IMG/VR virus record: IMGVR_UViG_3300034068_000286
Location: 22,544-86,543 of that record
Length of the DNA: 64,000 nt
From: a virus
Strand: one strand, 5' to 3'
The notes beneath the pieces were generated by a model. That model searched no databases. It was not told the origin of the DNA and worked only from the letters and a program-made list of their open reading frames with translations. Position numbers and translations under genes: made by a program. Shown in pieces: positions 2,243 to 57,283 of this stretch (its first letter is position 1; every line of letters begins with the position of its first letter).

Positions 2243-2423
2243 AACCCCAACCTGTCCATTCTTTTGTTAAGCCCAATGCTTGCTCTAGCACCAGTTGCGG
2301 AATGCCCTGTATGCTCTCCATGCCAGTTTGATTTACTACTGACACAGCCCAAGCCTTTTCAGGCTTGTACCCTTCAAGGAAGCTATACGTTTGATAAAAA
2401 TCTCTAACAGTAATAGATTTCAT
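2148..2423 (-). CDS. Hypothetical phage protein
   Basis: 91 aa ORF coupled to queD stop. Confidence 0.6.
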   Translation of the reverse strand: MKSITVRDFYQTYSFLEGYKPEKAWAVSVVNQTGMESIQGIPQLVLEQALGLTKEWTGWGFDESQSWLLFENKEDAVFAKLFFGEGVSGKD

Positions 2424-2926
2424 TAAGCAAACAAGTCTTCATTCCATTCACGATGACCTTCTGTAAAGGCCATGTTGCTTTGTGTCTCACGTACTTCTAC
2501 ACGATAGCACCATAAGCGAGCCGCTTCACCTGGTCCCCACATCTCTGGAATGTAAACTCCGTTAACATACTTATAAAGCATGTCACTAAGACCTTCACAT
2601 CCTAACTTGGGTAGTACAACTACCTTGGCCATGTTCCGCTCTTGTAACAGTTTGTATGTGGCCATCTCTGGATCATCTGCCGCTACAATAAGTGTATGAT
2701 CAAACTGGTCTTCTAGGATTTTCTTTAGTTCTTTTAAGCCGCCATAGTCTGCCGCCCAATTGCGGACATCTAAGTCGTTGGTGCCAAAGTAGAACTTCAT
2801 ACTAAATGAATATCCATGAATTAAATTACAATGGCTATCGGCCCTCCACTGTCTGTACGCACATGGAAAGGCGTCGTGATACTCTTTAGTACTTGTGTAC
2901 TTGTATGTTACTGGTTGGAATGACAT
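2423..2926 (-). CDS. queD: 6-carboxytetrahydropterin synthase QueD / PTPS
   Basis: HCNLIHGY, FDH and VEVRET motifs; AGGAG RBS. Confidence 0.9.
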   Translation of the reverse strand: MSFQPVTYKYTSTKEYHDAFPCAYRQWRADSHCNLIHGYSFSMKFYFGTNDLDVRNWAADYGGLKELKKILEDQFDHTLIVAADDPEMATYKLLQERNMAKVVVLPKLGCEGLSDMLYKYVNGVYIPEMWGPGEAARLWCYRVEVRETQSNMAFTEGHREWNEDLFA

Positions 2927-3000
2927 GCTTTTCTCCTATGTTAATTATAGCATAGGCTTGCAGAATTTGTAAAGCGGGATGAATGCCGGAAAGGCCGCTG
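2927..3000 (-). promoter_or_regulatory. Structured 5' leader of queD (riboswitch-like candidate)
   Basis: AGCGG/CCGCU stem plus CCUAUG/CAUAGG hairpin covering the RBS; TAAATA box at 3005-3010. Confidence 0.45.
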
Positions 3001-3018
3001 TTGATATTTATTGTAATG

Positions 3019-3603
3019 TTAGCGTGTTTGTAGTTCGTTAATACCTAATGCTTTGAAAGAACGTTGAACACCAACCAACTGACTCCAGCAGTCCCATAGC
3101 GCATGATGCGCGGCGCCTTGTGGCCGTTGCAGTCCAGGAACCAGTGCGTACAGTGTGCGAGCGTCACGGGCTTGCCAGTACTGCCAGGCCACACCACGTT
3201 TTAGTTCTCGACTAAAGTGTTCCAAGATGTTTAAGTCAAAGCCTGTACCATTGGCCCAGATAGCATCAACGCCGCCACACCACCGATGAAAGTCTTTGAG
3301 CACGTTACGGATGTCATGGCGATCATGTTCGTTAAAAGCTTCACCGCGTACTTCTTCACTTTGTTTGCCCCACCATGCTAGTGTATCGTCATCAATAACA
3401 TGGTCAAGACCTTCAAAGCTTTCAAAGCTAACACGACGGTAAAATGTATCCATCTTCTCCATTGGGTTGTCAGTATCATCAGCCCAAGGATTAAAACGAA
3501 TTGCGCCAATAGTTAGCATTAAACTGTTTGGCTTTGTTCCTAGCGTTTCCAAGTCAACCATGATGTGATTACCTGGTCGATCAAAATTATATACTTTATT
3601 CAT
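3019..3603 (-). CDS. DEDDh 3'-5' exonuclease (Rv2179c/exonuclease VIII-like)
   Basis: MVDLETLG, WANG..FD, RDART, HHALWD motifs. Confidence 0.88.
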   Translation of the reverse strand: MNKVYNFDRPGNHIMVDLETLGTKPNSLMLTIGAIRFNPWADDTDNPMEKMDTFYRRVSFESFEGLDHVIDDDTLAWWGKQSEEVRGEAFNEHDRHDIRNVLKDFHRWCGGVDAIWANGTGFDLNILEHFSRELKRGVAWQYWQARDARTLYALVPGLQRPQGAAHHALWDCWSQLVGVQRSFKALGINELQTR

Positions 3604-3784
3604 TGTTATCGGTAACTTTCTGTTTGCTCAAAGTAAACGAACCGTTTTGATTATCTTTCCACAATATGATGTCACCAAAGTCCCATCCTACCTGTGCCAA
3701 CATGTCAGGCGAAAAGGGAATGACCAGTTCTTTAGTTTCTGGATCTTCCTCAACTGTAACAGTCCAGCGTTTGTTTTCTGTCAT
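3596..3784 (-). CDS. Small AbrB/MazE-like fold protein
   Basis: LVIPFSPDMLAQVGWDFGD pattern. Confidence 0.55.
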   Translation of the reverse strand: MTENKRWTVTVEEDPETKELVIPFSPDMLAQVGWDFGDIILWKDNQNGSFTLSKQKVTDNNE

Positions 3785-22986: not shown

Positions 22987-24472
22987 TGTTTAAATGTTTA
23001 CCTGTGATCAAATTATAATTATAACTGGCTCGTGCCATTGAGTTTTCTACAGACTTCTCATTGAGATTGGTCTGATTAAATGGCATATTTTCTACAATAT
23101 ATTCTGGTATGTCATGAAACCAAGCACTTGCAACTTCCCAGCCGCCAATTTTTATATGATGTCTAGCAGACTCAATGCATTTGTTAGAAATTTCTTGTGC
23201 CTTATTTGCAGTCATTCCAGAGGTATGCACCCAATCCAATGACCGTGTGTTGTATGCTAATTCTTTAGTGGTATACCCATAAGATTTTGGGTCCTTTTCA
23301 AACAAGCTGTATGGAACTTCACCCTTTGCTGTTCGGTGCATTCCAAGTGCATTGAAATTCCAACTTCTGAATAGACGATTCTTGTTTTCAATTAAGTAAT
23401 CACTCCATTTATAAATTTCTTCTTCAGTGTCACCTGGTAGTCCAGCAATCAAACTGGCATGCATTTTAACACCATTCTCATTGAGAGTTTGTGCAATTTC
23501 AAGCACCCGGTCAACTGCGATGCCTTTTCCGACTATCTGTCTAGATTCTTTTCGCATAGATTCAAGGCCAATAAATCCACCCTTAATACCCAAGTCAAGT
23601 AACATAGAAAGCATGTTGGGTTTGGTAATAATTAGTTCAGGCCTAATATAACCCACAAATTCAAAATTTGATAATTTAGCAATTTCAATTGCTCGTTTAA
23701 CTATATCTAGTTTTTCGTAGCTGTCGTTAAATGTGTCATCAGATATCATGTATCGGTAGGTACCAAACAATTCATAATTTCTTTTAAGTTCGCGACCAAT
23801 GCTTTCTGCTGTTCGTATATAATCGTATGACTTTTTACCCAGGAATGGATGTGTGCAAAATGCACATTTAAAAATACATCCCCTGCTTATTTCAATAGGT
23901 AAAGGTTGATGAGATAAGAATCCATCTTCTTCCTTAAAGACTGTTTCAATTTCGTCTACATTTATTACTGGATAATCTCTGTCAGCTGATACTATTTTAA
24001 TTTCGCCTGAATTGGGACCTGGAATACCGTGTGCATCTGTTATATAAATCAAATCTGACGTTTTTCCGTAGAGATAATCAACAAGCTTGACAAATGCAAT
24101 ATCACTAAACCCACTAACAAACCAGTCGCAATAGTTATATAACAATGCCGGTGGGGTAGTACTAGTGCCTCCAACCACAATTGTTATATCTGGAAAGAGT
24201 CTCCTAAATCTTCTAAAAAAAGAAAGATCCTGTGCCCACTTATTGGTTGGGAAATGATACCAGGCAGCACTGATACCTAATATTTTTGTTTCCGTTGTAA
24301 CAAGTGTTGACAGCAGTTCAATCATTTGATCCTGATTAAGTGCCCATGCGTAGTCAATGATTTTTAGCGAATATCCTGCATTTTCAAATGCTGTTCTTAA
24401 TCTAAAAGAGCCAATTGCTCTACCTACTCGATCAAACGTGATACCACCAATCAGTATTACGTTATAACCCAT
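22979..24472 (-). CDS. B12-binding radical SAM protein
   Basis: VVGG, SRGCIFKCAFC, DDTFND, GLES, I.GLPGD. Confidence 0.88.
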   Translation of the reverse strand: MGYNVILIGGITFDRVGRAIGSFRLRTAFENAGYSLKIIDYAWALNQDQMIELLSTLVTTETKILGISAAWYHFPTNKWAQDLSFFRRFRRLFPDITIVVGGTSTTPPALLYNYCDWFVSGFSDIAFVKLVDYLYGKTSDLIYITDAHGIPGPNSGEIKIVSADRDYPVINVDEIETVFKEEDGFLSHQPLPIEISRGCIFKCAFCTHPFLGKKSYDYIRTAESIGRELKRNYELFGTYRYMISDDTFNDSYEKLDIVKRAIEIAKLSNFEFVGYIRPELIITKPNMLSMLLDLGIKGGFIGLESMRKESRQIVGKGIAVDRVLEIAQTLNENGVKMHASLIAGLPGDTEEEIYKWSDYLIENKNRLFRSWNFNALGMHRTAKGEVPYSLFEKDPKSYGYTTKELAYNTRSLDWVHTSGMTANKAQEISNKCIESARHHIKIGGWEVASAWFHDIPEYIVENMPFNQTNLNEKSVENSMARASYNYNLITGKHLNNA

Positions 24473-31704: not shown

Positions 31705-32373
31705 ATGAACCCTAGCATACTTGATCCGCTTACAGAAGAACAGCGGCTGGCATTGATTTCTTGCTTTGAAAATAACAGCCAAATAAAAATTCTACCACAA
31801 CGCAAGTTTGCGCTTGACTTAGAACCTGCACTAGAAATTGTCAAGCCCATCATCGACGGCGTACTTGGCGAAGGCACATGGGAAGTTACTGGTGGCAACT
31901 TTTTTGAAACTGAAACAGGATATCGTGTTCATGCTGATACAGGCAAAGAAGGCCCTGAACGTGTGTTACAGACTTTTGTTTTTCCACTGCGGCAGGAACT
32001 ACGTGACGACATTCCTGTAAGATTAGAGCGAAATAGATTTTTGGTTTTAAACCAAACCTGGTCTGGTGATGCGGCATTCTTCCTACGTGGTGAAACTGTA
32101 GAGCCCAACGAATATAATCAGGTCATAACAGATTATCAAGATGTTGAAAACTTAGATGATATAGAAACACTAGACGGCATACTACTAGATCATTGTCCTC
32201 ACTTGAACATTAAAAACTTTGCTGGCCTTACCGTGGATAAGCACTGGCAGTGGATTCCTGGCATCCCAATGACTTTCCCTCGCAATCGTTTACATGTTAG
32301 CAGTGCGTTTCCACGTAATGGAATTAAACGCAAATTAGGTTTAAGTATTTTTACTTCACGCCTGGGTCAGTAA
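31705..32373 (+). CDS. Putative 2OG-Fe(II) oxygenase-like protein
   Basis: VHAD ... RLH.S...K; TAAATA box 31692-31697. Confidence 0.6.
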   Translation: MNPSILDPLTEEQRLALISCFENNSQIKILPQRKFALDLEPALEIVKPIIDGVLGEGTWEVTGGNFFETETGYRVHADTGKEGPERVLQTFVFPLRQELRDDIPVRLERNRFLVLNQTWSGDAAFFLRGETVEPNEYNQVITDYQDVENLDDIETLDGILLDHCPHLNIKNFAGLTVDKHWQWIPGIPMTFPRNRLHVSSAFPRNGIKRKLGLSIFTSRLGQ

Positions 32374-32998
32374 ATTCTAACTGGCTCAGTGCCCACTCTC
32401 GTTCCTTGCAGTTGTAACATTCTCCGCATCGACCTACTGTAAGTGCGGTACACGAATGAGTAAGTTCAATTAGCGGCCATACATCAAATATGTCGTACAG
32501 ACTTAGTGTATGACGTTTATCAACCAAAGCAAAGGGACACGTAGTACCAGGCAACTCTACACTGGCAGGTCGACTGGGATATTCACCGGGCAATTCAATT
32601 AGTGCTCGATCAGGGTGTGCTTGACTACCATAAAAAATATGTTCAATTCCATATTTTGTTCTTGCTTCATGCTCACCAGTGCGACCTTGTTGACTGTGGT
32701 GTACTGTTGGGTCTCCGACTTTGATGGGATCGGATAATTGTTCAATGGTAAGATTAAGTTGATTTCTAACCCACTCTACAATAGGTTTAACATAATCCCA
32801 TGCGCCGTCAGGACGGGCAACAGTGAACGGAATAATTTCTTGTGTACTCTTATCCATCCTACGCTCTAAGCAGACTAGATACAGTAGCACCGCAGAATCT
32901 GCACCGCCGCTTAACATTACTCCAATTCGTTGCTTGCCTTCAGGTAGCTTGATGTCTACCTGTTTGATAAAATCATTTTTGCCTACTGTAATTCTCAT
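32351..32998 (-). CDS. QueC-like PP-loop ATPase (7-cyano-7-deazaguanine synthase-like)
   Basis: LSGGADSA PP-loop; THSC...CGECYNCKER. Confidence 0.75.
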   Translation of the reverse strand: MRITVGKNDFIKQVDIKLPEGKQRIGVMLSGGADSAVLLYLVCLERRMDKSTQEIIPFTVARPDGAWDYVKPIVEWVRNQLNLTIEQLSDPIKVGDPTVHHSQQGRTGEHEARTKYGIEHIFYGSQAHPDRALIELPGEYPSRPASVELPGTTCPFALVDKRHTLSLYDIFDVWPLIELTHSCTALTVGRCGECYNCKEREWALSQLEFTDPGVK

Positions 32999-34257: not shown

Positions 34258-34354
34258 TGGATAAAAGCCCCATGTTGTTACTCTTAGCGAGTAGTATATT
34301 TATTGATGACCTACTTTAGTTTAAACACCAGTTGCTTGCGTAATAACTACTTAC

Positions 34355-37180: not shown

Positions 37181-37219
37181 ATTGTTATACCCGTGTTCTT
37201 GTCTAATATTTATCTAAAG

Positions 37220-37760: not shown

Positions 37761-37799
37761 TATCACTATTATATTTATTTCTTAGCGAGAAGTCAAGTA

Positions 37800-46225: not shown

Positions 46226-48295
46226 TTATTGCCACGCACCAGTGCCATTATATCTATGTGTAAAAGAAAAGTCCCAAGTCTTACGCTCATCTAATAATGT
46301 CATTTCTTCCGAGTACTCTTGGTTAGTAAATTGACTTTCGCCGCCGCTACCAGGTAATGCCAGCTTGCGAGCACGTTTAGCGGCTACACTATCAGCACGG
46401 CTAAACTCACTGTAGTGCCAAGCATCGTCACGTTGAACAAAGTCGTAATAAAAATCAGCGATCCAATTACCATTCACGTCAATGTCAAACTTGAACATAC
46501 CTGTAAAGTTACAGCCCATTCTGTCCCCAAACTCTCGATTGCTAAATTCTGGAGTAATTGTCAAGTCTATAGTATATGCGCCGCGACTGCGCCACATTAG
46601 ACGAAGTAAAGGCCAAATTTCATTTACAAGACTATCGGCAAAACTATTGATGCCAGGCTTAATTATGTTGTAATCAAACACTTCGTACTCTACTTCACGT
46701 ACCACGCTGTTGTCAAAGTTTAATTTACATATATCATTGACACCACTGCGGTTAGTGAAGTCAATATTCTCTTCTGTTACTACGTTGTTAAGGAATATAT
46801 TAAACGTAGTCAAGCGAATTAAACGATGCACCTTACTGTTATCATAATCTTTGGTAATCCAGTTGCCTTCAAAGTAGCTTTTGGCAATGTTGTACTTGTC
46901 TGTGTTCTGTGCCAGGATAGTATCTGGCGGAATAGTAAAGCCGTGTCCGGCACTGACGTTGGTTAAATTGTTGTTGCGATTGCGCCAAATAAAAGTCATT
47001 GACTCATAAAAGTCTTGTGGAGTTTCTGTAGGGAATCCAATGATCCAATTAGAGAAAGCTTCAACACCTACTAGTTTGCCGTGACGTAAATTCTGTTCCA
47101 TTTCTTCAACAGTAACGCCCTTGTCCATATCAGCAAGAACCTTGGTACTGCCGCTTTCAATGCCGTAACTTAAACTGATACAGCCACTTGCCGCAAGATC
47201 TTTGTAGTATTCCAAATCCATACGCCCATCACATCTAGCATAGCCTGTCCAGGCTATTTTCATTTCACGTGCAATTACACCTTTACAAAATGCTCGTAGC
47301 TCATTTAGGTTGCCATTTACTAAACTGTCCAAGAACCAAATAACATTAACGCCGCGGTTGAAGTATAAGTCTGCTACTTCTTCTAGGATATTACGTGCCT
47401 GACGTCCGCGATACTTCCAAAAGTGTGTTTCACTGCAGAACACACACTTGGCAGTACAACCACGACTGAGTTCTGCATTGACGCCGTTGGGGAAACCATA
47501 ATCAAGCGGATCAAAATAACTGTAGTCAGGTGGTGGCAATTGATCCAAGTCTAGTCGCTGTCCGTCTGTTTGACGTAACCAACGCTGACGTCCATCAAAC
47601 TTGCCTGCTTCTATTTCTTCTAATGCTTCTAGTAACAACTGTTCGCCTTCGCCTGTGATGATGTAGTCGTACTCGGGTTCAGGTTGCCAGTAACTTTGGT
47701 GACATTGTGGACCACCAATCATGACAATTATGTGTGGATATCTGCGCTTTAATTCTTTGACCATCCACTTGGTGGGTTCTTGGTTACAGTAATAAAGACT
47801 AAAGCCTACTATAGTAGGATTCAATTCTCCAATTTTATCTAAGTACTGGTTTAAGAAGGGTTCCACATACTTGTGTAGATATTCATAGTAGTGATTATCC
47901 ATCCAGCGCCATTCTCTACTGCCATCCCAGGGATTAAAGTCCAGACCTGGCCAGTTGGCATGGTCAACGTGTGCTTTAGCATTTAAGTCAAATGCGTCAG
48001 TTGCATAGCCAGCATCGCGACTAATAGCCGCAAGTCGTGCTATATTGTATGGAGGAAAGTTATGAGCCCACTCTGGCAACAACATAAACACCACACTGGT
48101 ATTGCGTGTAGCAGGAGTTATCTCTACTTGTGTTAGGTTGCCTTGTGGCCTGGCACGAGCGAACGGCTGTAGTGCTTCTAGTACCTTGCGGTGTTTGGCG
48201 TCGTAATCTTCTTCTACTTTAGCAACAGGCTTTGTCTCTTTAAGAGCATAAATCTTTTGCCAGCCATATACGCTGTTTTCTTTGGGTTTAGTCAT
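46226..48295 (-). CDS. B12-binding radical SAM protein
   Basis: IGGP, GEGE, SRGCTAKCVFC, GIESGS, GFPTET. Confidence 0.9.
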   Translation of the reverse strand: MTKPKENSVYGWQKIYALKETKPVAKVEEDYDAKHRKVLEALQPFARARPQGNLTQVEITPATRNTSVVFMLLPEWAHNFPPYNIARLAAISRDAGYATDAFDLNAKAHVDHANWPGLDFNPWDGSREWRWMDNHYYEYLHKYVEPFLNQYLDKIGELNPTIVGFSLYYCNQEPTKWMVKELKRRYPHIIVMIGGPQCHQSYWQPEPEYDYIITGEGEQLLLEALEEIEAGKFDGRQRWLRQTDGQRLDLDQLPPPDYSYFDPLDYGFPNGVNAELSRGCTAKCVFCSETHFWKYRGRQARNILEEVADLYFNRGVNVIWFLDSLVNGNLNELRAFCKGVIAREMKIAWTGYARCDGRMDLEYYKDLAASGCISLSYGIESGSTKVLADMDKGVTVEEMEQNLRHGKLVGVEAFSNWIIGFPTETPQDFYESMTFIWRNRNNNLTNVSAGHGFTIPPDTILAQNTDKYNIAKSYFEGNWITKDYDNSKVHRLIRLTTFNIFLNNVVTEENIDFTNRSGVNDICKLNFDNSVVREVEYEVFDYNIIKPGINSFADSLVNEIWPLLRLMWRSRGAYTIDLTITPEFSNREFGDRMGCNFTGMFKFDIDVNGNWIADFYYDFVQRDDAWHYSEFSRADSVAAKRARKLALPGSGGESQFTNQEYSEEMTLLDERKTWDFSFTHRYNGTGAWQ

Positions 48296-49451
48296 CTTGC
48301 CATTCTACTAAAAAATCAGGCCATAGTTCATTGAATGAATGTTTCTTGTCACTTAGATATTTTACTTCTGTAGCATGTGTCCAGTCTGTAAATTCTAATT
48401 TCTTTACCAACCACTCATCCCCTGTTCGACCAATGGTCGTAACTAACTGATCTCTAATATTTTCCAACGCACTCATATCATAGCCGCTGGTGCCGTATTT
48501 GGATATGCACAGATCTAATTCTGCCAAGGCCTTATGTTTAAAGTTATCAGGTAATTTGAATACATTTAAGCTACGTATGTTTTGTATAGCACACCAATAT
48601 ACTTCGTTGAAGTAGCCTTCGCTGATGATAAAGTCGTAATACTCGCACAGGTTAAACGCAGAGTAGGTACAGTATAACGGATGTGCATTTATCATTTTTA
48701 CACCTTGCTTGTCGAGATATCGTAGATTGTCAACAAAGGTCGTCCATTCTGCACCATGACGTACATACTCAAAGCGGTCGCCTACTGTATCAAAACTAAT
48801 GCCCCACTGTGCATTTTCGTTGGCAATTAACTTGGGTGCAATAGTATTGTTGGGTAGATCGATACTTAGGTTAGAAAGGATGTAATAATTCTTTGTAGGC
48901 AACAAATCAATTAACTTGTGGTTCTGCTTTTGTAGCAAAGGCTCACCGCCCAACAAGTTAATTGTTTCAATACTGTCTAAGCTATCTATATTTTCTGCTA
49001 TTAGTGTAAACAAACTGTCTTCTGCTTCGGCTTTGTTGGCATTAACCTTGATACCTTTAAGTATACTCCATTTGCTACTAAAATATTCGTAGCAGTAATT
49101 GCAGGCTAGGTTACATAAATTACTCCAACGTAGATCTAGCTTTTGAAGTTCAAATGTTTCTTTGGTAGCTGATTCAAATATTTCAAATTTATTTGCACTA
49201 CCAGTATCTACACGCTCGCTTCTAGCACCCATGGCTTCCAACTTTTGGCATTGTTCACATTGTGGGTGCCAGCGTTCTTCTATAATGGCCTGTCGTATGC
49301 TTTGTGCCACAGGTCCTTGTAGGATTTCTTGTATGCTTTGTTTATTAATGTCACCAATATCTATTTTGGCACTACAGCAGGTTTTAACTCCGCCGTCGGC
49401 CCCTAGGAAAATAGTGTTAAATGGGTAAGCGCAAAAGGTTTCTTTATTCAT
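48288..49451 (-). CDS. Radical SAM protein with N-terminal SPASM/twitch domain
   Basis: CAYPF..CC..CEQC; CNLACNYC; GGEP. Confidence 0.9.
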   Translation of the reverse strand: MNKETFCAYPFNTIFLGADGGVKTCCSAKIDIGDINKQSIQEILQGPVAQSIRQAIIEERWHPQCEQCQKLEAMGARSERVDTGSANKFEIFESATKETFELQKLDLRWSNLCNLACNYCYEYFSSKWSILKGIKVNANKAEAEDSLFTLIAENIDSLDSIETINLLGGEPLLQKQNHKLIDLLPTKNYYILSNLSIDLPNNTIAPKLIANENAQWGISFDTVGDRFEYVRHGAEWTTFVDNLRYLDKQGVKMINAHPLYCTYSAFNLCEYYDFIISEGYFNEVYWCAIQNIRSLNVFKLPDNFKHKALAELDLCISKYGTSGYDMSALENIRDQLVTTIGRTGDEWLVKKLEFTDWTHATEVKYLSDKKHSFNELWPDFLVEWQDD

Positions 49452-51219: not shown

Positions 51220-52493
51220 GAGGGGTCCGCTGGTTTATTTTTTATAGATCTGTCGTTGATTTCGTGCGTAAAGATTCTGTCTATACTGCTGTTCTGTCCG
51301 CATGTGTCCGCACAGTAACTTAATCGACCGTTTTCAACTTGGTCAATTGACCATGTATCGGCAAACACACGGTCTAGGTGTTCTGCGCTTAATATTTCAG
51401 CCAATGAATGTGTATCTAAGCTAAAGTGTTCCCAGCCGTAATCATTCATGTGCTTGTGCAACTGTAAGCTACGAGTATCTGTGTATACACCATTCAAGTG
51501 TGTTCCAATATAACAGCAAGGCATTACACGGCCAAAGTTATCAACAAAGATTTCTTTGCCGCCTGTCCAAGTTTTGCTTTTACATTTAATCTCACAGCTA
51601 TTAAATTTTGTATTATCTTCAGCATAGATCCTATGAGTATACACTTCTGCTACTTCTTGTTGGAAGGCCTTGGATATTTGTTTTGTTTCTTTTAGTTTAC
51701 GATAGTCATCTACATCAAAGGGATAAAATGTTACTGCCAGTTCACCCTTGGGTTCAGCTAGGTTACGATTCTTAGCTTGTGCCGGTGCTTCAATGATGTA
51801 GTCTAAGTTGCCGTCTTTATCTAGCACAGGCATTTTGGTAAGGTATTCACCGTTGTCAACGCCCAAGGCTTTCTTGGGTACAAACTCTGTAAACTTCATT
51901 TGTTCTGCTAATGCTTGTGCTTCTTCAATTTGATGCTCGTTATGACGGAAGATCAAGTAGTCCCAGTTGGCACTGCCGCCTGCGTCGATGAATGCCTTGA
52001 CATTTTCCATAAGCACATTCCAATTAACATTACGGCGGTATAAATGATTAGTATCTTCTAAGCCATCAATGCTGAAGGTAATTTGCCAGTATGCGGGGTT
52101 ATGGTCACGTGGAAATTGTGAAAATAGCGCACCCATTTTTGCCCACCAATCAGGCTTACGCATACCACCATTGGTATTCATGCGTACCGCTGTGGTCTTG
52201 CTTACACTGGCAATGTACTCGCAAATTTCAAGTGTGTCTTTAGCTGTTCCTGGATCTCCGTGTACACCACAGAATAGAATAAGTTTGCAACGTTGTATAA
52301 CTTCAGGAGGGAAATACTGCTTGAACTTGTCTAGTGTGATCTGCCCGATTTCTAAATCAGGTCTTGCATGTGGGCTGTTGTTATGGAATCGCACACACAT
52401 AGGGCAAGCGGCATTGCAACCATTGGTTAACTCAATGTGCATTTGCTCTAGTTCATTCATGTTCCAGAATGCTTCAGTATTTTCTATAGTCAT
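51195..52493 (-). CDS. Radical SAM protein with C-terminal SPASM domain
   Basis: CNAACPMC; GDP; TNG; PCC...C..TC. Confidence 0.9.
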   Translation of the reverse strand: MTIENTEAFWNMNELEQMHIELTNGCNAACPMCVRFHNNSPHARPDLEIGQITLDKFKQYFPPEVIQRCKLILFCGVHGDPGTAKDTLEICEYIASVSKTTAVRMNTNGGMRKPDWWAKMGALFSQFPRDHNPAYWQITFSIDGLEDTNHLYRRNVNWNVLMENVKAFIDAGGSANWDYLIFRHNEHQIEEAQALAEQMKFTEFVPKKALGVDNGEYLTKMPVLDKDGNLDYIIEAPAQAKNRNLAEPKGELAVTFYPFDVDDYRKLKETKQISKAFQQEVAEVYTHRIYAEDNTKFNSCEIKCKSKTWTGGKEIFVDNFGRVMPCCYIGTHLNGVYTDTRSLQLHKHMNDYGWEHFSLDTHSLAEILSAEHLDRVFADTWSIDQVENGRLSYCADTCGQNSSIDRIFTHEINDRSIKNKPADPSCDLPQQN

Positions 52494-53124: not shown

Positions 53125-54346
53125 GCGCTTTTACAACTCGACCGTATGCTTCAAATGTTTTAAAGAAGTCTTGCTCACGATAATCATCGTGTGTTTTAAT
53201 TGTACTTAGGAACTTGGCCCATTCTTCTTCTGAACAAGGTGTACCGTTTTCCAAGAATCCAATGATACCAGGCAACTGATACCATGCATGTTCATACTGT
53301 TTAGGAATGTTATGCAGTCTATCAAGTACAGCTTCTTTAATGTCAGCGGGTAAACTACTCATGTTATAATGAGCAGGACGATGTACTAGGTTTAAGTATA
53401 GGCCAAAGTCTGTAAAGTTATCATAGTATGCATCCAGTGTTTCAGGCAAGTTGTAGATGTTGATACTACTGAGTGTAATGCACCAGCTCAAACTTAAATT
53501 GCCGTGCAGTTTACTAAAGGCACTGGCTTTCTTCATGTTATCTACTGCTTCTGTCCATACAGCAGGATAACGCATGTACTCAAACTGTTCGCCTGTGCCA
53601 TCAATACTAAAGCTCAGATTAACGTGCTTGAAGTTTTTCCAAACTTCTGTTTCTTCTGGCCATGTTGTGCCATTGGTGTTGTAGTGTAGCTCGATATCTT
53701 TGGCATAGCCGTTGTCTACACAAAGCTTTAGCACTTCCCACATCTTCTTACTAAGAAATGGTTCACCACCATAAAAGTCAAACTGTTTGATTGTGCTTAG
53801 GTTATTGGCCAAGTCATCCCAGAAAGGACTGTCCTCATCATATGTCTGATGATACTTTTTCATCTCAATGGCATAATCTTTGTAGGTGGTACGTTCAGTA
53901 TGATTTAGGTCATAATCTTCTTTCATCCATAAACTACTAATAGTAGGATGACATGTACGGCACTTAATGTTACAGGTGTTGCCTAAGTTAAGTTCAAACT
54001 TGGCAAGTCCAGTGAATGGTTCTGCAAAGTCATATTCTATACCATGAAAGTATTTGTCGTTGTCACGTAGACGTTTGCTCTTACGGCCGCCATCTTCTTC
54101 TTGCCAACATTGATTACAAGCACGATCACGTACACCTGCTGTTAAGTTAGACTTAATGCTTTGAGCAATAGGGTTGTTAAAGTTTTCTTCAATTGTTTTA
54201 CTACCCAAGAACCATACTCGTTCCCCGCCCATGTAGTTGTACGACTCATCGATCATGCAACACATTTTACTAGAGCCGTCGTTGTTGCCGCTCATGCCAT
54301 GTAGTGCATTCACGCACCAGCTGTGTTTATTGTCCTGGTTCATCAT
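53117..54346 (-). CDS. Radical SAM protein with N-terminal twitch domain
   Basis: CNIKCRTC; GGEP; TNG. Confidence 0.9.
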   Translation of the reverse strand: MMNQDNKHSWCVNALHGMSGNNDGSSKMCCMIDESYNYMGGERVWFLGSKTIEENFNNPIAQSIKSNLTAGVRDRACNQCWQEEDGGRKSKRLRDNDKYFHGIEYDFAEPFTGLAKFELNLGNTCNIKCRTCHPTISSLWMKEDYDLNHTERTTYKDYAIEMKKYHQTYDEDSPFWDDLANNLSTIKQFDFYGGEPFLSKKMWEVLKLCVDNGYAKDIELHYNTNGTTWPEETEVWKNFKHVNLSFSIDGTGEQFEYMRYPAVWTEAVDNMKKASAFSKLHGNLSLSWCITLSSINIYNLPETLDAYYDNFTDFGLYLNLVHRPAHYNMSSLPADIKEAVLDRLHNIPKQYEHAWYQLPGIIGFLENGTPCSEEEWAKFLSTIKTHDDYREQDFFKTFEAYGRVVKAHV

Positions 54347-55697
54347 AGTTTAAGTATACCTGTTTGCATAATGCATAAAATTCTTTGTATTCAGGGAATA
54401 ACTCTATTAAGTTAGTACCTAGTCTGTTGTCATTTTCATTGAAGAAACTAAAAAAGTCTCTACGACCTGCACGGATGTGTTCTGGTGTTAATTCATGTTC
54501 CTTCATATAACCAGTCACACGCTTGAACTTCTCATATTCAACACTGGTAAAGTAATCTGGATTATCTTTGATAAAATCCATGTTAGCATCCATGTAAGGA
54601 ATAAAATCTGGAGTTAGAATTTTAATCATCCAGTGTGGTGGTTCTTTCAAGTAAGGTGTATCAAATGATATAGCTTCCTTACCAAATTCTTTACGCCATT
54701 CAATTACTTTTTCTAGGAATGCACGGAATGTAGCAACGCATAATACATTGAATGTACACATCAAATTAATTGTGGCACCAGTCTTCATAACTGCTTTCAT
54801 GTTGCGTTCCCAATGAGCACAATCCATGCCTGTACGCATGTACTCTGCTTGAGCACCCCAACCTTCAATACTAGTAAAGAAGCTGAACTTACGAATCTTC
54901 TTTTGTGCCAGTAAACTTTCTACACGTAGAATCAAGTCATCAACCTTGGCAAAGCTTACACCCAAGTTACTGTTAAGTGTAATCTCCAACTGCGGCGCAG
55001 GCTCTTTTTCTAGCAGATCAAAGAACTGCATGGCACCTTTGTTCATTAACGGCTCGCCTCCAGTAATACGAAGTGTATGTAGGTCATGCTTGAGACTTGG
55101 CCACCACTTCCAAAATGCTTCAATATAAGGGTTCTCATCTTTAGGACCGTAGTATGTTCCTGTCTTTACGAACTCAATGCCATACTGATTGTATGTTAGG
55201 TCATGGTTGCCAAACTTTTTAGTTTCCTCCATCCATAACGTACTGGCTTGCGGACTGCAATAACCACAGCGATAGTTACAGTTATTGCCAAAGCTGACTT
55301 CTAGGTAGCGTGGGTTAATGGGTGCGTCCCAAGGTAGCTCTGCTAACTTTTCAATAAGTGGTGCAGAAAAGTCTGAGCTACTGTGGATCATACGATCGCT
55401 GATGTGATCACCTTCCAAGTCTTCAATGTTCCAACAGTAGTAGCACTCATCGGGGCGGCCGCCTTCCAACATTGTCTTGCGCTGTTCCTTTTTCCATTTG
55501 GTATTGTGCAGGGCACTTGGATCTACAGCAATCTCATCTAGTGGAATGTGGTGTGGCCGTGGATGATAGCAACTGTGATTATCACCTGTGTGAAGATACA
55601 GAGTCTGGTGCAACCATTTCATTGCACAGAAACCTGGGCCTACTTTATTAAGACGGTCTCGCACATTCTTAATGTGTATTACTCTATTATCTGACAT
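54327..55697 (-). CDS. Radical SAM protein with N-terminal twitch domain
   Basis: CAMKW..HSCYHP; CNYRCGYC; GGEP. Confidence 0.9.
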   Translation of the reverse strand: MSDNRVIHIKNVRDRLNKVGPGFCAMKWLHQTLYLHTGDNHSCYHPRPHHIPLDEIAVDPSALHNTKWKKEQRKTMLEGGRPDECYYCWNIEDLEGDHISDRMIHSSSDFSAPLIEKLAELPWDAPINPRYLEVSFGNNCNYRCGYCSPQASTLWMEETKKFGNHDLTYNQYGIEFVKTGTYYGPKDENPYIEAFWKWWPSLKHDLHTLRITGGEPLMNKGAMQFFDLLEKEPAPQLEITLNSNLGVSFAKVDDLILRVESLLAQKKIRKFSFFTSIEGWGAQAEYMRTGMDCAHWERNMKAVMKTGATINLMCTFNVLCVATFRAFLEKVIEWRKEFGKEAISFDTPYLKEPPHWMIKILTPDFIPYMDANMDFIKDNPDYFTSVEYEKFKRVTGYMKEHELTPEHIRAGRRDFFSFFNENDNRLGTNLIELFPEYKEFYALCKQVYLNYDEPGQ

Positions 55698-57283
55698 TAG
55701 TTTCCTTTTAATTTATTATACGCTTCTTTGCTTACAGTAGCAAGAGCTGAAAGTTCTGGGAAGGTTGCTGTAAAATCTGTGCCTCGGCGATCATCATGTT
55801 CTTTGAAGAATGCATAAAAGTCTGCTCTTGCTGATTCTAGTTCACTATCATATACTGGCTGATTGGCCCAGTCGTACAGTCGCCGAACCTTGTCAATTTC
55901 ATAATCCTTGAAACCTTTAAAAGCAGTTTCTTTTGTTTCCATGTTTGCTTGCATGAACTTGATACTTTCTTCTAGTACTTTTAAATTTTCTTTGGGAAGA
56001 ATTTTTAAACTCAACCAATTTGGATCCATTAACATTGGAACATCAAACCAAATCAGTTGGCGGTTAGTGTTAAATTCTTGTCGCAGTTTGAGAATGTTCT
56101 TTACATATTCAAGCCACCCAGGTATACTTAGCGCATTGAATGTTACAATGAAAGTTAAGCTGTGCTTTTTACCTTGGCGCAAGAATTTAGTCACATTGTT
56201 ATACATAACTTCAAAGTCTAGCCCATTGCGAATATATTCTGCTTGCTTGCCCCAGGAGTCTAAGCTACAGTAAAGCATAAAGTGATCAATGGCGTTGGCA
56301 TTTTCAAGAGCAGATAAACTTGTCAAAAACTTATTCCATTGATCACCAGGTGGACAGCAGTTACTAGTAATACTTAAATGCAAATCAGGATTTATGGGCT
56401 TTTCAAGCACATAGTCAAATACCTTAAAAGTATTTTTATCCATCAAGGGCTCGCCACCCGTCATACGGAAAGTTTGTAGTGTAGGATACACTGATGGGAA
56501 CCAGTCCCAAAATGCCTTCAAGTAAGGATTGTTTGGGCCATTGTCTGGCACCATGTTTGAATCAATCATCCATTGCAAGTCGTTGTGTTTGCCACCAGAT
56601 GGCAGTACGTACGGGCCAAATTTCTCAGCTTCCTTTTGCCACTCGGTGCTAAGGTGAGGACTACAGTAAGCACATTTAAAATTACAGGCCTGGTTAAAGT
56701 TCACTTCAACATATCTAGGCAATGGATTACCACTGTAGCCATCTTCGGCCAGTTCTTTTAAAATACCTGGACGGAATACGTCCTTACTGCGATATGCCCT
56801 GTCGCTTAACTCCTCACCTGAGTCTTCGATGTCCCAACAAAAGCTACACTCTTCGGGACGAACACCGTTGAGCATTTTCTTACGTTGTTCTTTCTTGTGT
56901 TTTGTATTATGAATAGCACCTGAATCTAATGCAATTTCTGCCAAGGGAATATGATGTGCAGGTGGATGATAGCAACTGTGAGTTTTTCCTGTGGGTATAT
57001 GCAGGCTTACATTGTACCATTTGGCCAGGCACATGCTAGGAGATACTTGATTTATAATCTCAAAAACCTTGCGGGTGTCTATTGCGTAGACACTTTTAAG
57101 GTTACCATCAACTGCAACTGCGCCATCGCCACGTTTGCTATTAACAAGAGCCAGTTTTGCTTGTTCTCGTTCTGCTTTAGACATGAAAGTGACCAGCTTT
57201 GGTTCTGTTAACGAACCAATCTTACGCTTAATGGTGTCCTCGGATATATACTTTGGTCCGCTTGCTTTATCAAATATGTTCAT
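55697..57283 (-). CDS. Radical SAM protein, paralog of 54327..55697
   Basis: CLAKW..HSCYHP; CNFKCAYC; GGEP. Confidence 0.9.
   Translation of the reverse strand: MNIFDKASGPKYISEDTIKRKIGSLTEPKLVTFMSKAEREQAKLALVNSKRGDGAVAVDGNLKSVYAIDTRKVFEIINQVSPSMCLAKWYNVSLHIPTGKTHSCYHPPAHHIPLAEIALDSGAIHNTKHKKEQRKKMLNGVRPEECSFCWDIEDSGEELSDRAYRSKDVFRPGILKELAEDGYSGNPLPRYVEVNFNQACNFKCAYCSPHLSTEWQKEAEKFGPYVLPSGGKHNDLQWMIDSNMVPDNGPNNPYLKAFWDWFPSVYPTLQTFRMTGGEPLMDKNTFKVFDYVLEKPINPDLHLSITSNCCPPGDQWNKFLTSLSALENANAIDHFMLYCSLDSWGKQAEYIRNGLDFEVMYNNVTKFLRQGKKHSLTFIVTFNALSIPGWLEYVKNILKLRQEFNTNRQLIWFDVPMLMDPNWLSLKILPKENLKVLEESIKFMQANMETKETAFKGFKDYEIDKVRRLYDWANQPVYDSELESARADFYAFFKEHDDRRGTDFTATFPELSALATVSKEAYNKLKGN

Follow-up and report, generated by a model that had tools for sequence, protein, structure and literature searches.

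A conserved H-type pseudoknot in the mRNA leader of a phage queD-like gene, a candidate preQ1-I-like riboswitch

The window analysed here is a stretch of 64,000 nucleotides, bases 22544-86543 of an 86.5-kb IMG/VR virus record (IMGVR_UViG_3300034068_000286). The record is 26% complete according to CheckV, which suggests a genome of roughly 300 kb or more, and the largest related contigs are up to 383 kb long. Coding sequence covers 91% of the window, and 88 of the 97 crude gene calls lie on the minus strand. Two of these minus-strand genes, one for an Rv2179c-like 3'-5' exonuclease and one for a QueD-like protein of the PTPS fold, are separated by a gap of 92 nt, which forms the leader of the latter (Table 1). 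An earlier note, made from the letters of this DNA, had described in the leader a 5-bp stem with a 17-nt loop, followed by an A-containing tail and by a hairpin (CCUAUG/CAUAGG) hiding the ribosome-binding site (RBS). The stem, AGCGG (2999-2995) with CCGCU (2977-2973), is present on the minus strand where the note had placed it, and both the tail and the hairpin over the Shine-Dalgarno (SD) sequence are found on the same strand. The 3' arm of this anti-SD hairpin overlaps the first bases of the SD sequence AGGAG (2937-2933).

Table 1. Genes, structural elements and promoter-like sequences in and around the queD-like leader, with positions in the window; the leader is listed in the direction of transcription.
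Feature	Position	Strand	Evidence or remark
Rv2179c-like 3'-5' exonuclease gene	3019-3603	-	Pfam, 118 bits
ATAAATA, T4-late-promoter-like, 5 nt upstream of P1	3005-3011	-	likely promoter of the leader
Whole aptamer-like H-type pseudoknot (P1, L1, P2b, P2a, L2, L3)	2955-2999	-	R1 covariance model and covariation
P1 5' strand, AGCGG	2995-2999	-	pairs with 2973-2977
L1, CCUUUCC	2988-2994	-	starts N-C-U; U at third position invariant
P2b 5' strand, GGCAU	2983-2987	-	against 2955-2959: 4 of 5 pairs in the window, one A-A
U facing C2960, between P2a and P2b	2982	-	U opposite C in 127 of 128 variants
P2a 5' strand, CA	2980-2981	-	pairs with UG 2961-2962; C-G invariant
L2, UC	2978-2979	-	C2978 unpaired and invariant (variant table)
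P1 3' strand, CCGCU	2973-2977	-	pairs with 2995-2999
L3, UUACAAAUUC	2963-2972	-	A-rich, 10 nt; highly conserved W-U-A-N-A-A-A-Y-U-C
P2a 3' strand, UG	2961-2962	-	pairs with CA 2980-2981
C facing U2982	2960	-	127 of 128 variants
P2b 3' strand, AAGCC	2955-2959	-	last two C are the first two bases of the anti-SD arm
Sigma-70-like TTTACA-18-TGcTATAAT	2944-2973	-	overlaps L3 and hairpin loop; 11 of 12 matches plus TG
Anti-SD hairpin: CCUAUG (2956-2951), 10-nt loop, CAUAGG (2940-2935)	2935-2956	-	-5.8 kcal/mol
Shine-Dalgarno AGGAG	2933-2937	-	read in the sequence; 6 nt before ATG at 2926
Regulated gene, 167-aa QueD-like PTPS-fold protein, CxxxHGY not CxxxHGH	2423-2926	-	Pfam PTPS, 53.6 bits
QueC-like ORF	32351-32998		PF06508, 25 bits

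The regulated protein scores 32.4 bits against the NCBIfam QueD model TIGR03367, below the equivalog cut-off of 89.25, and carries CxxxHGY where the signature of QueD is CxxxHGH (PMC10516641), so that it falls outside QueD membership on both counts. The CxxxHGY form is found at 76 of the 80 listed loci of the leader motif (from at least 120 matches, see below). In Pseudomonas phage Iggy, too, the annotated QueD has this form; it is encoded in a QueE-QueC-QueD-FolE-DpdA operon, and the DNA of Iggy carries dPreQ0 (PMC10484667). Because Iggy combines the same variant with dPreQ0-containing DNA, the function of the protein in the window may still be QueD-like. FolE is encoded in relatives of the window phage (134-137 bits), a QueE-like radical-SAM ORF adjoins queD in one relative (G003) or folE in another (G001), and a QueC-like ORF is present in the window itself. 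A TGT/DpdA protein with the PF01702 domain gave no match, even in a 100%-complete relative of 383 kb; however, divergent DpdA subfamilies exist (PMC10516641), and the PF01702 miss is therefore not proof of absence.

Comparison of the leader with its relatives assigns the 5-bp stem as helix P1 of an H-type pseudoknot, in which bases of the loop pair with the tail to form a second helix, P2. For this comparison 128 distinct variants from uncultured phage contigs were parsed. P1 is found in seven fully complementary helix types (AGCGG/CCGCU, AGAGG/CCUCU, UGCGG/CCGCA, ACCGG/CCGGU, AGUGG/CCACU, UCCGG/CCGGA and AUCGG/CCGAU), with about 2 of 640 cells being non-canonical and a mismatch in two of the 128 variants. 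In a model-fitted alignment (A2) P1 is 99.3% paired and covariation is seen in 3-4 of its 5 pairs. P2 consists of two parts, P2a and P2b, split by the U-C apposition. The second pair of P2a is A-U in 124 and G-C in 4 of the 128 variants with no mismatches (A2: 48 A-U, 5 G-C), the G-C form being present in 4-5 variants of perhaps three lineages. P2b is 4-5 bp long, which gives the whole P2 a length of 7-8 positions, and its helix types include GGCAU/AUGCC, GACGC/GUGUC, GACUU/AAGUC, GGCG/CGCC, GACA/UGUC, GGCUU/AAGCC and GGUG/CACC. Among the unpaired elements, L1 ranges from 4 to 9 nt across the family, L2 is UC in 97, CC in 16 and AC in 10 of the 128 variants, and L3 reads AUAAACACUC in a marine clade. 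Altogether about 20 unpaired positions are nearly invariant while the proteins have diverged to 42% identity to the query. Such near-invariance of the U in L1, of L2, of L3 and of the U-C apposition is conservation as in aptamers with tertiary structure. A pairing of CUGC with the 5' strand of P1 was also considered and was dropped, as it did not covary with the AGAGG variants.

The earlier note had proposed that the loop could pair further downstream, overlapping the arm of the hairpin that masks the RBS. Such a pairing exists, but in a register about 6 nt away from the one proposed. GGCAU (2987-2983) does form five pairs with AUGCU (2953-2949) in the window, one of them G-U; the partner used across the family, however, is AAGCC (2959-2955). 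Five pairs in the AUGCU register are found in 17 of 60 variants of group A (the platform group of the window, see below) and are impossible in the other three groups, whereas 44 of the 60 reach four or more of the five pairs in the register directly after UCUGC, which also covaries family-wide. P2 additionally contains the CA/UG step and the invariant U-C apposition, neither of which was part of the original description. Some variants could also form P2 in a second, proximal register that involves the GC of UCUGC.

Folded alone, the leader of the window has a minimum free energy of -15.3 kcal/mol (z = -0.54), and 59 of 200 shuffled sequences fold as well; the single-sequence fold is no better than chance. 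It is the comparison with relatives, rather than the single fold, which lifts the pseudoknot above chance. With the register fixed, 82% of the P2b pairs are canonical; permuting the tails 1000 times lowers this to 56 +/- 2% (62% at most), and sliding the register lowers it to 32-48%. On A2, 87.4% of the cells are paired with a covariation score of 0.233 vs 0.077, and 0 of 500 shuffles reach either value, while slid structures pair 30-50% of cells; because the variants are related by descent, these shuffle controls overstate significance. The count of independent helix types has no dependence on them.

The distribution of the motif was followed with a covariance model, R1, which was built with P1 as its only helix. 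R1 matches positions 2946-3010 with 73.3 bits and has no second match in the window or elsewhere in the 86.5-kb record; four large related records contain one strong copy each. Among the best 80 of at least 591 loci encoding relatives of the protein (89-95% protein identity), the motif is present in every relative with enough upstream sequence. A pattern scan of viral contigs that took no account of genes gave at least 120 matches, of which 80 were listed, and all 80 are strong R1 matches. At 79 of these 80 listed loci a PTPS-like gene lies downstream on the same strand, within about 100 nt in 76 of them and with one gene between in three; at the sole locus without it the contig ends 122 nt past the motif. 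The identity of the protein to the query goes down to 42% among the listed motif loci. The same type of scan over 185,579 prokaryote genomes gave one true match among 80 listed loci, a phage-like contig binned as a marine 'Rickettsiales' MAG (L160), and this led to the marine clade, with 295 relatives and the motif in 67 of the 80 loci kept. A second, weak match of the prokaryote scan (L123) was rejected, as it lies in coding sequence. Neither 1.4 kb of the locus nor the 55-nt aptamer gave a true blastn match in 50,697 phage records. At the queD loci of Iggy, R5C, R26L, ACP17, X1, Phosso and Me-ZS1, the cultured phages with the closest QueD-like proteins, there is no R1 match and mostly no leader. 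In these searches the motif was found almost solely in uncultured phage contigs, from lakes (giant phages) and from the sea (small contigs).

The earlier note's comparison of this phage queD-like leader with H-type pseudoknots is therefore borne out, as a conserved H-type pseudoknot recurs in relatives and both its helices covary. The covariation check across phage queD leaders that the note proposed has turned up both conservation and compensatory changes. We have hardly any doubt that the leader contains a real, selected, cis-acting RNA pseudoknot.

Downstream of P2 the relatives display four architectures of the expression platform (groups A to D). Group A, which includes the window (33 variants modelled), has the anti-SD hairpin that hides the ribosome-binding region, and this hairpin is present in 61 of the 128 distinct aptamer variants. 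The hidden element in groups B, C and D is the start codon. In group B (15 variants modelled) the P2 3' strand GUC(A/G)UC pairs with GAUGGC, in group C (8 variants modelled) GUCAUUGUUA pairs with UAACAAUGGC, and in the marine group D (34 variants modelled) AAGUCAUC pairs with GAUGACUU. Closing the knot and hiding the SD sequence or the AUG are tasks of one and the same strand in each of the four groups. Since the 3' strand of P2 is at the same time the anti-SD or anti-start strand, formation of the knot should free translation (ON), a direction of control that the earlier note had left unsaid.

Accessibility was computed by partition-function folding as the probability of being unpaired, for the RNA folding freely and for the RNA held in the knot. 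With the knot imposed, accessibility in group B rises from 0.09 to 0.59 for the SD sequence and from 0.05 to 0.35 for the AUG, and that of the AUG rises from 0.00 to 0.39 in group C and from 0.00 to 0.82 in group D. In group A the SD sequence becomes more accessible (0.41 to 0.67) but the AUG less so (0.56 to 0.26). The loss at the AUG comes from UAUGCU, which, once released, is able to pair again with AGCAUG; 25 of the 33 group A variants have AGCAUG as their start context. In the window itself, pairing of C2956 and C2955 with G2986 and G2987 is computed to destabilise the anti-SD hairpin, from -5.8 to +0.4 kcal/mol. The models thus firmly predict that formation of the knot would turn translation ON in groups B-D, and less firmly that it would do so in the window's own group A.

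The same competition between the two structures could in principle run without any effector, as a folding timer, a thermosensor or a translational enhancer, in which the knot would form first and permit a burst of translation before the anti-start hairpin takes over. The strands of the knot are transcribed before the SD sequence and the AUG, and P2, taken as a duplex, has a stability of -3.9 kcal/mol against -8.6 kcal/mol for the anti-start helix of the marine clade, which makes a default ON state decaying to OFF physically plausible. However, an element of this kind leaves about 20 near-invariant unpaired positions unexplained, and we judge it to be quite unlikely.

Promoter-like sequences are found on both sides of P1. 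The T4-late-promoter-like ATAAATA upstream of P1 occurs six times on the coding (minus) strand of the window and never on the plus strand, and four of the six lie within the 9% of the window that is intergenic. Among the relatives, 110 of 131 contexts have a TAAATA- or TATAAT-like hexamer in the 24 nt preceding P1, at a distance of 5-9 nt in most cases. With this spacing the aptamer would be situated at the very 5' end of the transcript. In a freshwater metatranscriptome 5% of the words were found, in low-depth contigs of 151-185 nt from relatives, 90-95% alike; these contigs cover part of queD and 34 nt of leader and at their low depth no transcript ends were seen in them.

The sigma-70-like sequence downstream of P1 offers a different account of the conservation, namely that the leader carries a DNA-level, sigma-70-type promoter of queD (2973-2944) and that the stems are incidental. 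It has 11 of 12 matches and the TG of an extended -10, and of the 61 group A variants 57 retain TANNNT and 59 have a spacer of 17-18 nt. Its -10 element lies inside the loop of the anti-SD hairpin. The T4 genes e, soc and I-TevI likewise have an RBS-hiding hairpin with a late or middle promoter inside, and, as there, a transcript starting from the TATAAT of the window would drop the inhibitory 5' arm. In contrast to the T4 genes, which are without an aptamer, the sequence here is a consensus match in one of four groups. The other three groups (B, C and D) have no -10-like part at that place although they retain P1, P2 and L3, and compensatory changes on one strand, tolerance of G-U pairs and covariation of loop and tail are all left unexplained by a promoter. 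Moreover, in the marine clade, where the motif is part of an operon, 4-8 nt separate its start from the preceding stop codon, and the conserved sequence cannot be a promoter there. As the sole explanation a promoter is hardly credible. Because TANNNT is kept while the rest of the loop varies, an additional internal bypass promoter is possible in group A only, though we consider it doubtful.

Our best explanation is that the queD-like mRNA leader folds into an H-type pseudoknot aptamer of roughly 45 nt, and that the 3' strand of P2 would have two mutually exclusive partners, the aptamer loop when the knot is formed and the ribosome-binding region when it is not. In the window the competing structure would be the anti-SD hairpin CCUAUG/CAUAGG. 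Our proposal is that a small molecule with a guanine-like face would stabilise the knot and draw the anti-SD strand off, turning translation ON; candidate ligands would be an intermediate or product of the route from GTP through H2NTP and CPH4 to 7-deazaguanines. On balance, the leader is probably a phage-restricted riboswitch candidate with preQ1-I-like features, hitherto undescribed, through which translation of the QueD-like protein would be activated. The judgement is evenly poised on a fuller proposal, in which the leader would be a new riboswitch class of uncultured aquatic phages that senses a guanine-like metabolite of GTP, pterin or 7-deazaguanine metabolism (or a host signal of like shape) and turns QueD ON, committing host GTP to DNA modification only when the pathway is fed. 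A pathway metabolite that turns a biosynthetic gene ON would be an unusual logic, which speaks against the small-molecule explanation.

Riboswitches are rare in phages (PMC9004378), and no riboswitch is mentioned in two main papers on phage 7-deazaguanine DNA modification (PMC6884629, PMC10516641); nor did the literature searched contain a description of the leader motif. If the proposed riboswitch is real, it would constitute a new small class with a preQ1-I-like shape and an example of how one fold gets re-wired and re-targeted. It would also mean that phages control an anti-restriction DNA-modification pathway through metabolite sensing, and it would provide a compact ON switch (about 45 nt) for engineering. 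The 128-variant alignment makes the riboswitch question directly testable with synthetic RNA.

Searches of Rfam (4227 families, E <= 10) with positions 2400-3700 and 2915-3025 of the window, 14 marine loci and the most preQ1-like variant (L026) gave nothing but chance matches, among them preQ1-II (15 bits), SmY and pieces of lncRNA. The Rfam comparison that the earlier note had called for therefore places the leader in no catalogued family. In five phage records, the window and four related ones, the preQ1-I model RF00522 gave no match at the leader (E <= 10), while control genomes responded; its noise elsewhere reached at most 15.5 bits against a gathering score of 39 bits. A cmscan of leader pieces of 111-121 nt likewise gave no RF00522 match.

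Of the known RNA families, preQ1-I (RF00522) is nevertheless the closest. Both are small H-type pseudoknots with a 5-bp P1 that has G-C pairs at its top, and both lie in leaders of genes of the queuosine/7-deazaguanine pathway. Directly before the 3' strand of P1, preQ1-I RNAs of type I have UC and those of types II and III have AC; type I also has UU atop the 5' strand of P1 and an A-rich L3 interrupted by C (PMC11625349). The phage leader shares with type I the UC before the 3' strand of P1, a U in L1 and an A-rich, C-interrupted L3. The earlier note's description of the leader as preQ1-I-like yet off the consensus is thus an apt one, as the leader has the 5-bp P1, the UC and the A-rich L3 but gives no RF00522 match. 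By analogy only, C2978 occupies the place of the C that specifies the ligand in preQ1-I, and the phage RNA may work like preQ1-I, with the unpaired C recognising a ligand that stacks between the two helices.

The H-type knot, the 5-bp P1, the UC, the A-rich tail and the queuosine-pathway gene would also suit an ordinary, divergent member of preQ1-I that binds preQ1 or preQ0 and represses queD. However, P2 of preQ1-I has about 4 steps, its A-rich L3 is 6-8 nt long and the SD bases are inside P2 in the translational members. The P2 of the phage leader, with 7-8 positions, is twice as long and is split into two parts by the invariant U-C apposition, its L1 of 4-9 nt starts N-C-U and its L3 of 10 nt has a conserved YUC end. 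The phage SD sequence is situated outside P2, 18 nt downstream of it, where it pairs with the 3' strand of P2, and the computed wiring predicts ON, opposite to the OFF logic of such a repressor. With RF00522 finding nothing at the leader in the five phage records and cmscan finding nothing in the leader pieces, we do not file the leader as preQ1-I on account of this failure, the long two-part P2, the longer L1 and L3 and the opposite logic, and an ordinary preQ1-I riboswitch is very unlikely here.

The preQ1-II and preQ1-III riboswitches (RF01054 and RF02680) are, like the phage RNA, pseudoknotted leaders of the same pathway with translational control. In contrast to the phage RNA, they are HLout-type knots of about 80-100 nt with an embedded hairpin, and the alignment of RF01054 to the leader (15 bits, E = 2.8) skips the whole structured core.

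In phage Mu the start region of mom is hidden in a hairpin, and the zinc-finger protein Com activates its translation. As proposed here for the queD-like gene, a phage DNA-modification gene is thereby switched ON by remodelling of the RNA upstream of it; however, the Mu system consists of a simple stem-loop and the Com protein, whereas the leader described here holds a conserved pseudoknot. With this precedent for the control of a DNA-modification gene, the pseudoknot could be the binding site of a phage or host protein, possibly the enzyme itself, that releases the SD sequence or the start codon. The structure and the competing pairings fit a protein as well as they fit a small molecule. However, the motif is retained in freshwater contigs of giant phages as well as in small contigs from the sea, no conserved neighbouring regulator gene was noticed in an unsystematic look at the neighbourhoods, and the invariant unpaired A, U and C beside P1 copy the layout of the preQ1-I pocket, and we regard a protein effector as unlikely. 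The small-molecule aptamer that we favour has a further parallel in the THF-II riboswitch (folE motif, PMC6800512), which is likewise small and acts at a neighbouring step of the route from GTP to pterins. THF-II differs in being a bacterial OFF switch built as a hairpin with internal loops, and it is without an Rfam match in the phage leader. With riboswitches in general the leader has in common a conserved, covarying aptamer-like element lying in cis to the genes of one pathway, and an expression platform that shares a strand with it.

In the relatives of the window's phage, the motif, an H-type pseudoknot that leads the queD-like gene and is a riboswitch candidate, occurs in two further arrangements. 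On the contig shared by the viral loci L044 and L291, the only double arrangement among approximately 215 related viral loci, a degenerate second copy and the 309-aa PRMT-like SAM methyltransferase ORF that it precedes lie directly upstream of a normal motif and queD. In this second copy P1 is shifted to ACCAG/CUGGU, one P2a position is A-C, and AUC stands where the distal GCC would be. On the L019/L346 contig, the motif is followed by a canonical CxxxHGH paralogue and then, about 490 nt later, by the gene with CxxxHGY. Therefore, the switch candidate can head a two-gene PTPS operon.

In the window's own expression platform (group A), the start codon lies within AGCAUG, whose complement UAUGCU belongs partly to the anti-SD hairpin's 5' arm and partly to its loop. 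Of the 33 group A variants, 25 preserve AGCAUG around the start, and the two segments may form a third alternative pairing of the platform.

Two closely spaced ORFs follow queD on the same strand (909-1957). Approximately 30 kb from queD lies an ORF with an N-terminal PP-loop (SGGADS) and, in its C-terminal part, a Pfam QueC match of 25 bits (cut-off 22); it is possible that this is a divergent QueC. The QueE-like ORFs of two relatives weakly match TIGR03365 at the N-terminal signature with 27-29 bits; one is located about 600 nt downstream of queD (G003), and the other adjoins folE in the complete 383-kb relative (G001). Seven radical-SAM domain matches are present in the 86.5-kb record, five of them grouped within about 8 kb, and relatives carry up to 14. 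Judged from these matches, the window's phage is unusually radical-SAM-rich.

The heptamer ATAAATA is found six times on the coding strand of the window and never on the other. Four copies are intergenic, each located shortly upstream of a gene start and sharing the context (A/G)ATAAATAT. The heptamer looks like a late-type promoter of this phage.

Coordinates of the features (window positions unless a locus or record is named)
Feature	Position	Strand	Evidence or remark
Second motif copy, degenerate	L044 1864-1928		39.5 bits
Motif ahead of CxxxHGH PTPS/QueD paralogue	L019 2475-3001		L019 and L346 are one contig
UAUGCU / AGCAUG	2949-2954 / 2924-2929	minus	complementarity
IscA/HesB-like Fe-S assembly protein	1628-1957	minus	Pfam Fe-S_biosyn, 55 bits
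174-aa ORF	909-1433	minus	DNA polymerase III alpha domain, N-terminal part only
QueC-like ORF, 215 aa	32351-32998	minus	Pfam QueC match, PP-loop
QueE-like radical-SAM ORFs	G003:C1:83366-84097; G001:C1:251318-251989		weak TIGR03365 match
Radical-SAM matches	23408-23896, 46988-47470, 48684-49124, 51918-52436, 53522-53989, 54954-55298, 56135-56476		
ATAAATA, intergenic copies	3005-3011, 34296-34302, 37206-37212, 37771-37777	minus
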